Below, one piece after another: positions 16,050-33,004 of a DNA stretch of 64,000 nt. The stretch's first letter is position 1. Each line of letters begins with the position of its first letter. Source of the DNA: a virus (lineage: Duplodnaviria; Caudoviricetes); the IMG/VR virus record IMGVR_UViG_3300028805_000096, positions 13,337 through 77,336 of that record. One strand, written 5' to 3'. The translations under genes were made by a program, and so were the position numbers. The notes under the pieces are model-generated. The model did not search any database, had not been told where the DNA came from, and was given only the letters and a program-made list of their open reading frames with translations.

Positions 16050-16850
16050 GGTTTCAGAAAGATTGCTTTAGCTTTGTGTTTTCTGTGTTTTTGCTGTGTG
16101 TTTTGCAGACAGTTTTCTGTTTCTTTTGTTGCTACCCCTCCCCTTTTGGTTGACATTGTGTCATCTTCGCAGTTCTCCCCTTGCTTCTGGTGTGTTGTGC
16201 CACCTCCGCTGTTGTGTGTGTCACATTTGCACCGTGCTTGCGGTTGTACCTGGTGTTTTGCTGTGCTGTGCTGGTGCTTTTTGAGGTAGTGCTGTCGGTT
16301 TTTCTGTATTTTCTTCCTCTGTTGCCTCTGTGGTGTTGAGTTTTCCCAGTTCTCGTGGTGTGTGGTTGGTGTGTCCTGGTTTTGTGGTCTGTTGGGTGTT
16401 GTGTGGTGGGTGTGTGTCGTGCTGTGTGCTGTTCGTGTTGTCTCTGTTGTGTATTGTTTTGGTTTGGTTGTTTGGTTGTGTGGCTCTGTCCGAGATTTTG
16501 TGGTGTTGTTGCTTCGTGTGTGTCTCGTGTTGCTGGTGTGTGTTGGTGTTGTTGTTCTTCTGTCTCTGTTGGTTCTGTTTTGTTTTGGGTTGTCCGCTGT
16601 TTTGTGGTCCTCCTGGTTGCTGTTCGTCTTCTGGTTGGTTGTCGTGGTTGTGTTGCTCTGTCCGCTTTTTTGCTCCTGGTATGTTTTGCTCCTCCTGGTT
16701 GGTTCATGTTGTTGTTTTTGGTGGTAGGTCTTCTGGTGTTGCTCTCTCCGCTGTTTTGTGTGGGTTCGTGTCGTTTTGTCACGATCTGGTTCTTAACGCA
16801 GAATGCCACCCTGGTTGGGTGGCTGTGTGGTGTTGCCTGTGCGTACTTGT
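16050..16850. other. Adenine-depleted (T/G-rich) tract, probably non-coding
   Basis: About 8 A in 16321-16740 and none in 16496-16680. Contains recurring short motifs. Confidence 0.85.
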
Positions 16851-30024: not shown

Positions 30025-31602
30025 TTAGTATAACTTAGTTCGGCTTATGTCTGGTTGTACTGCTTCGTTTTTGAATGGTCTTATTGAACAAGCTCTACTT
30101 ACGGGGTTATAGCCAGGTTGGTCGGCTCTATTAGCATAAGATTGTTGTCTCGCCGCATTTAATCAATAAGATAAAGCTAACGCAGTAGATGTCCAAATAT
30201 ATGCTGTGGTATCCCTATTCATAGTGCCTCAGCTTTCTGTAAGTCATCAACATAAAGGTATTTTAAGATATGAGAGATATTTATCTGCTCAATATCATCA
30301 TTGTCAGCTACCATTTGCAAAATTCCATAATCACATACTATTTCATAAAGTACCTAGTGCAAGCATTTCAGTTCTTGATGGGATATGCCATCATTCAGCA
30401 CAAGGTCATCTTCTAGCTACTAATGTATCTGTTGTATCCCCCCAGAGATTTACATTTTTGCTGCTGTCCCAATATGTAGCAGTTATATACGTAGATGAGT
30501 TATAATAATTATTAGGTCAGTAGTTTTGTGCATTTACTTGTGTAGGACTTGTAGTGGTAGGTCAAGTAAACGGAAATCAATAGTTGTTTCATCGCTGGTA
30601 AAACTTTCAGCAATTACTTTCGCTCATCGTATCTCAACTAGAATATACAGCTGTTGCTCACAGATTTTTATCTGCTATTGTTAGCCAAGTGTTTCAATCA
30701 CTACTCAGACTTATTAAGTCTTCTGTTTTATTCCAATATATTCAAGCTGTTGTTATAGGTGTTGCACTAGGTCGTACTTTTGTTTCTCATAGATAGACTG
30801 CTTTAGCTGCTCATTCTTCTGTTGTTCATTGGCTTACTCATCATCGGAGATTTCAGTTATCTGTCGTGTCCCATCTATATGGACTTGATGATACAGTTAT
30901 AAATGTGTCACTTGAATAATAATTTCAAGGTCAATATACACTAGCATCTACTTTTGTGCTAGAAGTAGTTACACTTCAAGTTCGTGGAAATCAATAATTA
31001 TTTCATCGTTGATAATATTTTCAACAGTTTGCTTCTGATAAAGTATCTCAACTATTCCATACTGTAGTAGCTCATAAGTTTTTATCTGCTATTGTTATCC
31101 AAGTCTGTCAGTCACTACTTAATGAAATTAATCACTTTGAGCTATTCCAAAATATTCATCAGCTTTCTATACTCGTTCAATATAGCTTAGTCCAAGAAGA
31201 CATAGGCACAACAGGGGAATTCTTGAAACAACGGACAGAGGAACCGTACGTACGGCGGTAGACATCCTGAGGATTAAGAGTATCCGAATTGAAGTACAGG
31301 TTGTACGCGTAATTAGTATTGCTACGCGAAGAGGACCAATAGTACCCGTAGGAACCCTGACCGTAAGCACCAGCAGACGAGTTGCTACGGTAACCAGCGA
31401 AAGGCAACTTTAATGCTATTCAAAAGTTAGTTCAGTCTGAACTTCATCCACCTAAAGCTGTTCGGATATTTCTTACAGTTTGCCATTCTGTATTAAGTGG
31501 TACGTGGAACCCATCAGGACAAGGTCACTGCATATCACTTATAGTTATACTTCATCAAGCATACAGATTTTTTATCTCTTTATCTCATATATAAATACTC
31601 AT
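30025..31602 (-). CDS. Receptor-binding protein with repeated CLec/Fib_succ_major-like modules (DGR target 1)
   Basis: 525 aa. QGPCPDGFHVP...LKLPFAGYR...YYWSSS...SVRCFKN, plus further modules (TIADKNLGA, YQWGNN, YIWTST). Confidence 0.85.
31217..31410 (-). other. DGR-type variable region 1
   Basis: GC-richer 194-bp block, colinear with 32126-32319. Differences concentrate in codon positions 1-2 of NNC/NNT codons. Confidence 0.75.
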
Positions 31603-31627
31603 TCTTTTATTTATTAAGAAATAAAGA

Positions 31628-33004
31628 TTAGTCTGTTACAATAGTTATCACATTACTAGATGTTCAACTAGCTGGTGCTGATGTGGATGTTACTATCTTG
31701 TAGAGCTGGTCTCAAACTACTAGGTTTCAAGATACTGTCTGAATTCAAGTTACTCATCACCAAAGATTTCAATTATCTGTCGTGTCCCATCTTCAATTAT
31801 ATTTTATGAATGTATCACTTGAGTAATAATTTCAAGGTCAATAACTACTTGCATCTACTTGAGTTGTACTTTGATTTGCTATTGTTCAAGTTCGTGGGAA
31901 TCAATAATTATTTCATCGTTGATAATATTTTCAACAGTTTGCTTCTGATAATGTATCTCAACTATTCCATACTGTTGTGGCTCATAAGTTCTTATCAGCT
32001 ATTGTTATCCAAGTAGTTCAATCTGAGCTTAATGATATAAGTCAATCTGCAGAACTCCAAAATATACCACCTGCTTCTATACTTGTTCAATATAGCTTAG
32101 TCCAAGAAGAATTAGGTATAGCTGGGGAATTCCTAAAACAACGTACAGATAAACCGCGCGCACGGGTGTCGCTATCCTGAGGACGAAGAGCAGTCGAAAC
32201 GAGGAGCAGTTTGTACGCGCTATAACTATAGTAACGCGAAGAGGACCAATAGTACCCGGTGGAACCATGTTCGCTAACACTAGCATCGCCGTAATTACGG
32301 TAACCAGCGAAAGGCAGCTTTAATGCTATTCAAAAGTTAGTTCAGTCTGAACTTCATCCACCTAATGCTGTCCATACATCATAAACAGCTTGCCATTCAG
32401 TTGTTAAAGGTACGTGAAATCCACTAGGTGCAGGTCACTGCATAGCTGTGTAATCTTTTCACTCATACGTACCATCCAATCAGATTTCATCATTTGTTAT
32501 ATCTATTCAGTTTCCTGCTGTATAGTTACCACCTGTTTGGATAGTCACATCTCCATACTGTCAGTTTACACTTGTGACTCAGGTATTTGAAATAGTGTTT
32601 CAGTTAATTCAGATTCATGTACCTGGTGTTAGTGTATTTTGTTTTCCCGCTATTGTAGTATCCATAGAGCTGATTTTGTCGTAGACAGCGTTTTTACTTG
32701 GAGCTTGTGTTGTGTCTCAATTCCATGATGATCCATAAGCTACATCACTTATTATTTGTGGATAGTCTATATTTACCTCTGTTATGTTTGTTACTTGTCA
32801 GAGATTGTTGGTTGTGATTTGTGGAACTTTCTGTCCTGTACCTTTTGCAGTATATGCTGTTTGTGTATCCAATGTATTTTGTTTTCAGCTTAGGTCTATA
32901 TTTGCTGTTCCGTTAGACATAACACTAGTTCAGTCGACTTTTACATCTTCTACGGGGAAGTTGTAATCTGTGTTATTGAATTTAAATTTTTTGAGTCTAG
33001 CCAT
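31628..33004 (-). CDS. Tail fibre with CLec-like module (DGR target 2)
   Basis: 458 aa. Fibre N-terminus (APSKNAVYDKI, SVNGQYG), then the same LKLPFAGYR...YYWSSS...SVRCF module. Confidence 0.85.
32126..32319 (-). other. DGR-type variable region 2
   Basis: Same length and invariant frame as VR1 (offset 909 bp, no indels). Confidence 0.75.

Follow-up and report, generated by a model that had tools for sequence, protein, structure and literature searches.

Variable regions of the diversity-generating retroelement type in two FISUMP genes of a rumen phage without reverse transcriptase, Avd, or template

Among the lectin-type targets described for diversity-generating retroelements (DGRs) are those of the CLec2 class, whose variable regions (VRs) form category 'd' (DUF1566 / DUF823 / Fib_succ_major), with Legionella LdtA as an example (Wu et al., 2018, PMC5758913). 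The components of the Bordetella phage BPP-1 DGR, namely Avd, the template repeat (TR), and the reverse transcriptase (RT), also act in trans when a plasmid supplies them (PMC5758913). According to an argument of Wu et al. (PMC5758913), DGRs associated with phages should not be expected to have remote targets, and a phage target of an outside DGR is the converse case. DGR clade 2 is restricted to Patescibacteria/candidate phyla radiation (CPR) and has been described as cellular (Roux et al., 2021, PMC8144416). The VR class, the mechanism, remote targets, action in trans, and CPR-restricted DGR clades are known already. In this study, we analyze two VRs of this kind in the genes P0001 and P0002 (positions 30025-33004) of IMG/VR virus record IMGVR_UViG_3300028805_000096, which derives from a rumen phage reading TGA as glycine (genetic code 25). 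Positions are those of the window, that is, the whole stretch of 64,000 nucleotides that was analyzed, spanning bases 13337-77336 of the 77,336-nt record.

DGR surveys start from the RT and seek targets in the same genome or contig, which makes targets on other replicons invisible to them. A literature search returned no account of RT-less phages that carry DGR-written VRs in structural genes of full length while a host chromosome has the same cassette.

Two variable regions with a DGR signature

The stretches 31213-31404 and 32123-32314 are, on strong support, DGR-type VRs in FISUMP lectin-type domains. A sequence-only reading of this DNA had proposed VRs of this type in domains of the C-type lectin kind, and an adenine-free scaffold, a switch of glycine codons, homogeneous silent sites, and the coincidence of variable codons with template asparagines all bear the proposal out. 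The assignment of FISUMP VRs to the CLec2 class rests on PMC5758913. The features on which the comparison depends are as follows:

30025..31602, minus strand: gene P0001, 525 aa under code 25, with 47 TGA codons read as glycine
31628..33004, minus strand: gene P0002, 458 aa under code 25, with 35 TGA codons read as glycine
31213..31404, minus strand: VR1 cassette, P0001 codons 67-130, hypervariable core at about 31240-31392, with an adenine-poor scaffold and no TGA glycine codon
32123..32314, minus strand: VR2 cassette, P0002 codons 231-294, hypervariable core at about 32150-32302, 910 nt from VR1
30043..30420, minus strand: non-diversified FISUMP C-half at the C-terminus of P0001, the internal control, with 33% adenine, glycine encoded mostly by TGA, and 15% C at third positions

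Each VR is located in the second part of a FISUMP C-half (...KLPFAGYR...GYYWSSSR...SVRCFKNSP). The two had been aligned without indels by the sequence-only reading, which is correct, but its second interval was one base off: 31217-31410 pairs with 32127-32320 at a spacing of 910 nt (145/194 bases identical), whereas a register of 909 gives 52/194. About 29 differing codons had been estimated, some 22 of them keeping the third base, mostly C or T, and these estimates come near the true values; counted on the coding strand under code 25, 32 of 65 codons differ, 24 of these keep the third base (C or T in 21), and four codons differ at the third base only. The sequence-only reading had called this pattern the opposite of neutral drift. 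Within the core (P0001 codons 71-121), codon positions 1, 2, and 3 differ 21, 18, and 6 times; the corresponding counts for 58 codons of the flanks are 10, 7, and 15 (Fisher p = 0.0017).

Homologous copies from IMG/VR and from Joint Genome Institute (JGI) metagenomes were brought together in a 12-way codon alignment of the cassette, in which all copies vary at the same codons, at positions 1-2, and remain NNC/NNT. Adenine accounts for 5.6% of the never-varying columns inside the cassette compared with 33.6% in the flanks, and glycine is encoded by TGA in none of 42 cases inside the cassette compared with 58 of 88 outside it (p = 9e-15). The GC content reaches 50-51% in both VR stretches, as against 36% in the genome. 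The control C-half (30043-30420), which is paralogous and non-diversified, has an ordinary composition and uses TGA. Through adenine-specific mutagenic retrohoming, a DGR template leaves its target with this combination of a scaffold free of adenine and variable codons derived from AAY. In the phage cassettes, the variation can be derived from AAY codons, the third base is kept, the scaffold codons are adenine-free, and no stop codons are generated.

Homologous templates are found in the bacterial order of the host, which is probably Gracilibacteria/Absconditabacteria, judging by the source names of RT homologs; the RT homologs are named Candidatus Gracilibacteria by their sources. The class searched was that of the code-25 rumen metagenome-assembled genome (MAG) G005, and BLAST of the phage VR against its 401 genomes matched genome G059, which has a complete DGR. 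Its components are a 405-aa RT (RVT_1), a bAvd-like protein, and a TR, with two VRs placed internally in a surface protein longer than 4019 aa. The bAvd-like protein falls just under both cut-offs (PF22296, E 4e-9, 37.3 bits, cut-off 40; PF05635, E 1.9e-7, 31.7 bits, cut-off 33.8). TR-VR mismatches lie at template adenines in 19/24 and 23/31 cases, some of the others being at the ends of the compared stretch. The translation of this TR is rich in asparagine (SFAGNRNYSTADLKNQGSNGNYWSSSPNSAGSNNARNLNLNSSNVNANNNNNRANGLSVRCF), and 17 of its 19 asparagine codons fall on variable columns of the phage cassette (asparagine on variable, asparagine on invariant, other on variable, and other on invariant columns: 17/2/11/34; Fisher p = 2.6e-6). 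Genome G458 has a TR and a VR, the latter in a pilin-like FISUMP protein, and 18 of the 21 asparagine codons of its TR fall on phage variable columns (18/3/11/33; Fisher p = 7.9e-6). On visual inspection, the 3' end of the cassette in the phage (TCTGTCCGTTGTTTCAAGAATTCC) agrees at 21 of 24 bases with the 3' end common to the G059 TR and VRs. TR-like copies also occur in G324 and G447.

The cassette is the product of mutagenic reverse transcription acting specifically on adenines; its template has AAC/AAT at the variable codons and no adenine in the scaffold codons. About 22-27 codons per cassette copy were randomized, and third bases and scaffold were copied faithfully.

Template searches and the spread of the cassette

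The template is missing from this phage, as are RT and Avd. The sequence-only reading had found no RT gene and no third copy of the repeat, which holds for the whole 77,336-nt record, where Avd is absent too. The record contains no RVT_1 domain, and its six-frame code-25 translations gave no match to a hidden Markov model (HMM) of 120 DGR RT homologs that recovered the RTs of G059, G372, and the related phage G003 as positive controls. It likewise showed no match in tblastn with the RT and the DGR target of G003, and no Avd in a search with bAvd PF22296. Only the two VRs were found on both strands of the record in an ungapped scan letting template A match any base and in gapped blastn with word size 7; the stretch 16050-16850 of the window shows no similarity to the VRs in the template scan. 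None of the parts that a complete DGR would have in the same genome (RT, TR, Avd) is thus present in the phage record.

The FISUMP VR is single-copy in both related phages, G001 (95% complete), which has no RT, and G003 (100% complete). The latter (L004 = IMGVR_UViG_3300028242_000055, a complete 48.6-kb code-25 phage) has its own complete DGR directly after its FISUMP gene (L004:8076-11130), with a 404-aa RT and the following repeats:

L004:9120-9258: VR of the G003 DGR, at the C-terminus of a 397-aa protein without a Pfam match
L004:9585-9723: TR of the G003 DGR, 465 nt downstream of the VR

Every mismatch within this repeat is at a template A. That the G003 DGR might serve the FISUMP VR of its own genome was considered and rejected, since its TR has no similarity to that VR. 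The loci fetched around ten other cassette copies contained no RT and no second copy in any of them.

The same cassette backbone occurs on ten metagenome contigs, in each case diversified and in each case different at the variable codons. The match starts abruptly at CCT TTC GCT GGT and stops near AAG AAT TCC CC, even where the flanks cannot be aligned (L011, L012, L018), and the cassette boundaries were set where these divergent genes begin and cease to match. Third-position identity between VR1 (P1 in the alignment) and L014 is 54/54 inside the cassette vs. 0.71 in the flanks, between P1 and L012 52/54 vs. 0.33, and between L016 and L018 52/54 vs. 0.32. Because silent sites are far better kept inside the cassette than in the flanks, the cassette must be younger than the genes carrying it, that is, written or moved recently from a few shared templates and freshly randomized each time. 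Linked silent changes distinguish two backbone alleles, a (P1, L010, L014, L012, and, with a few scaffold departures, P2) and b (L002, L007, L008, L016, L011, L018). VR2 departs from backbone a at a few scaffold codons (e.g., GGC GAT vs. TCG TCT in the others), perhaps because another allele of the template gave rise to it. In L012, the cassette match extends no further than about codon index 100 of the alignment, which fits writing in trans or import of a ready-made cassette alike. L008 and L009 represent the same phage strain from two metagenomes, 99.98% identical over 4.9 kb and with an identical VR.

One copy is chromosomal. L011 is a cellular contig carrying rpsI, a gene for a 1051-aa protein, and thrS, all with TGA as glycine. 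The 1051-aa protein has a signal sequence (by eye), a FISUMP domain with a b-type cassette, Flg_new repeats, and an SLH domain. The ThrRS of this contig is 96-97% identical to that of four genomes among 141 of the searched order, in two of which the counterpart of the 1051-aa protein contains an ordinary, non-diversified FISUMP module (tblastn).

Cassettes on more than one contig are also seen within the host order. Diversified-looking FISUMP VR cassettes lie on five contigs of G467, on C22, C60, and C61 of G469, and on G470:C12. RVT_1 detected no RT in G467 and G470, and a query with the G059 RT detected none in G469 and G470; no TR was found in G467. As this pattern in G467, G469, and G470 indicates, unlinked targets and assemblies from which RT and TR are missing are common in the host order; the retroelement of such MAGs is either systematically lost from bins or located on another replicon.

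Two observations concern the surroundings of the verified elements. The G059 locus (L042:2793-19899, G059:C4) comprises a large serine recombinase, the RT, bAvd, the TR, a 200-aa MutS-domain-I fragment, and the surface protein. In G458, the TR/VR pair adjoins a mutS gene of full length; no RT lies within 18 kb of the pair, nor was one detected in the MAG.

Proposed writing in trans and its alternatives

The likeliest reading, to which we assign a probability of about 0.5, is that the binding tips of the phage proteins were written in trans. Template, RT, and Avd would reside in the infected cell but on a replicon other than the phage genome; the host chromosome or a mobile element of the host is the most likely location, and another phage a less likely one. 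The cDNA would be written into any gene with matching cassette ends, whether a host surface-protein gene or a phage fiber gene, so that a phage with no retroelement of its own would gain binding tips of hypervariable sequence. Backbone alleles a and b would imply at least two circulating templates. The narrower proposal is more tentative, and we lean somewhat away from it: when a phage without an integrase infects the cell, a DGR of the host, or of a host mobile element, would write mutagenized cDNA into the genes for the phage's receptor-binding proteins. Host surface adhesins and phage fibers would then be diversified from the same templates, which would amount to cross-replicon retrohoming.

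The sequence-only reading had offered diversification in trans by a host or co-infecting DGR, or recent loss of a DGR. This inference has become more plausible, the host order having DGRs of the same VR class with remote targets and a host chromosome carrying a cassette, but no cognate template was found in the collections searched. BLAST of the VR against the 401 genomes of the class led to the homologous complete DGR of G059, but not to a template of backbone a or b.

Several results weigh against writing in trans. A template of backbone a or b was sought without success in the loci that were fetched, in IMG/VR with three patterns, in the 401 genomes of the class by BLAST, in the host order (141 genomes, two TR patterns), and among the small open reading frames (ORFs) of a 5.8-billion protein collection; VR and TR peptides used as queries there brought up many TR-derived ORFs, but neither type a nor type b was among them. 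With the G059 RT as query, no RT appeared in the five genomes that lie nearest to the L011 host. No conserved GC-rich hairpin was found downstream of the VR. Diversification is too slow to show between L008 and L009. Finally, the phage has no integrase, so that writing could take place only during lytic or carrier-state replication, for which no precedent was found.

The template was likewise not found in the five genomes nearest the L011 host, in the species genomes of GTDB searched with the core pattern, or in GenBank phages. In IMG/VR, a general TR-motif pattern (NNNNRANG) retrieved unrelated ordinary CLec2 TRs from phages, which indicates that the method works there. The JGI metagenomes were not effectively searched for the TR, because the scan core read GGN TAY TAY TGG, with TAY and not AAY at index 67, whereas the G059 and G458 templates read GGN AAY TAY TGG; such a scan finds VRs and not a TR.

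The best surviving alternative, which we nevertheless regard as unlikely, holds that diversification takes place only in cellular or other phage genes and that phages take up ready-made cassettes by short-homology recombination at the conserved ends (CCT TTC GCT GGT ... TCT GTY CGT TGT TTY AAG AAT TCC CC), with no retrohoming into phage DNA. The sharp cassette boundaries, the conserved ends of 12-26 nt, the presence of the same backbone in unrelated scaffolds including a host gene, and the identical VR of one phage strain from two samples (L008, L009) are all consistent with such import. Against it, no two different genes have the same variable codons among 11 copies known at the DNA level and 18 further ones at the protein level; no donor was seen, and the homologous ends are very short for recombination.

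Slightly less probable still is a relic, in which an ancestral phage had its own DGR for the FISUMP gene and lost RT and TR, leaving the VRs frozen. The complete DGR immediately after the FISUMP gene of G003 speaks for such an ancestor, as do the failure to find a cognate TR anywhere and the identical VRs of L008 and L009. The G003 TR does not match the FISUMP VR of its own genome, however, where that VR is single-copy, and the cassette is also present in a host chromosomal gene. Moreover, silent sites are 96-100% identical inside the cassette where the flanks have 33-71%, which a frozen relic inherited together with its flanks cannot give.

We judge it improbable that the phage DGR lies on a part of the genome missing from or misassembled in the record, which IMG/VR classes as linear and which may be composite. 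CheckV gives 100% completeness, the relatives G001 (95%) and G003 (100%) are also without a template for this VR, and the fetched loci of ten other copies have neither RT nor second copy. A history of ordinary duplication, with binding residues then under strong positive selection and no part played by a retroelement at any time, would produce the excess of changes at codon positions 1-2. It can in practice be regarded as refuted by the adenine-free scaffold, the switch of glycine codons from TGA to GGT/GGG, and the restriction to NNC/NNT in an AT-rich genome, as well as by the homogeneous silent sites and the match to the asparagine codons of real templates, none of which it explains.

The case for looking beyond the genome of the RT can be made from three observations: the target-side signature is unambiguous, three near-complete phages are without a template for the FISUMP VR, and a host S-layer protein gene carries the cassette. 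If a host DGR does write phage DNA, DGR diversification would not stop at the boundary between virus and host, the host range of phages of these epibiotic code-25 bacteria would hinge on an element that the host encodes, and a class of targets would be missing from DGR catalogs. If the cassettes were instead imported or recently orphaned, the codon signature (adenine-free scaffold, NNY codons, and the glycine codon switch in genomes with TGA as glycine) would still serve as a test that finds DGR targets without a template.

The carrier genes and comparison with known systems

The phage record is rated 100% complete by CheckV; no tyrosine or serine integrase was found in it, and a search with neighboring genes revealed no close relative of the phage. 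Within 30025-33004, long ORFs open only when TGA is recoded (table 25), giving two tandem genes; code 11, TAG as glutamine, and TAA as glutamine were rejected, with no long ORF under any of them. P0001 exceeds the curated cut-offs of PF09603 (E 3e-11, 44.3 bits, cut-off 33.9) and TIGR02145 (E 1.3e-13, 52 bits, cut-off 41.65). P0002 stays below both (TIGR02145, E 2.8e-6, 28.1 bits; PF09603, E 1.6e-5, 25.7 bits) and is clearly paralogous to P0001, with 70-100% identity within modules. P0001 consists of a FISUMP C-half with VR1, two successive N-halves, and the non-diversified C-half, and P0002 of a fiber-like N-terminal part, a C-half with VR2, and an N-half. The VRs are therefore internal, and a non-diversified C-half module ends the downstream gene P0001 (30043-30420), both as the sequence-only reading had described. 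The remaining modules are as follows:

30853..31185, minus strand: FISUMP N-half after VR1 (WTKLYG...ITIADKNLGAT...YYQ[CGA]GNNYGF...NL[CGA]GG), a member of a paralogous repeat family
31760..32095, minus strand: FISUMP N-half after VR2, in P0002
31405..31533, minus strand: non-variable first part of the FISUMP C-half of P0001 (QGPCPDGFHVP...KL), with ordinary codon usage and TGA used for glycine
32315..32443, minus strand: non-variable first part of the FISUMP C-half of P0002

Upstream of P0001 and P0002, the strand that carries them also has genes matching tail, minor-tail, and head-tail adaptor families, and on this ground the two products are probably distal tail-fiber-type or receptor-binding proteins. 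AlphaFold2 models from two runs had a mean predicted local distance difference test (pLDDT) score of 36 and 40, too low for use, and a profile search of PDB sequences gave a weak match only, to the C-type lectin CD209 (E 0.31). The VR-bearing C-half stands before the N-half in both genes, whereas the canonical N-then-C order is seen in L011 and in a 270-aa protein of G003; the reversed order may reflect a circular permutation. Compared with the window, contigs L007 (27588-29155) and L009 (36420-38000) are 95-96% identical in neighboring genes and 75-83% in FISUMP genes, and because of this difference the fiber module is regarded as a mosaic hot spot.

An AT-rich stem of 7 bp with a 5-nt loop (CTATATTGAACAAGTATAG) is conserved in the phage genes about 45 nt after the cassette, inside the coding sequence (KLYGTSIE), at about 31160-31180 and 32070-32090, and is absent from the host genes L011 and L018. 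In P0001, CGA codons at 31462-31464, 31006-31008, 30982-30984, and 30844-30846 replace the conserved TGG (tryptophan) of paralogs and orthologs, at TE[W]Q, D.[W]TALGG, YYQ[W]GNNYGF, and NL[W]GG, which suggests that CGA may be read as tryptophan in this phage besides TGA as glycine. CGT within the VR still behaves as arginine.

Four groups of described systems can be set beside this locus. CLec2 DGRs share with the phage VRs the target-domain class (Pfam/NCBIfam), the consensus AG.R...QG..G.YWSS...L.F.S....P......RA.G.SVRC, and the logic by which AAY becomes NNY; they differ in that the phage genome is without RT, Avd, and TR, has internal VRs followed by an N-half, and reads TGA as glycine. 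The BPP-1 DGR (mtd VR, avd, TR, brt) resembles the phage in that the lectin-fold tip of a receptor-binding protein is diversified at template adenines, but its whole cassette lies beside the target with one C-terminal VR, whereas here there are two VRs in two genes and no such cassette. For the DGRs restricted to the Patescibacteria/CPR, the resemblance lies in the verified DGRs of G059, G372, and G458, which are in small code-25 genomes, while in the present case the VR type is found in phage structural genes. In Treponema denticola and the lineage-4 cellular DGRs (Wu et al., 2018), one template serves several unlinked targets; comparably, the host order has VR-like cassettes of this class on several contigs, in G467 and G469, and two VRs in one giant protein, in G059. 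All known remote targets of such cellular DGRs lie in the DGR's own genome, unlike a target carried by an infecting phage.

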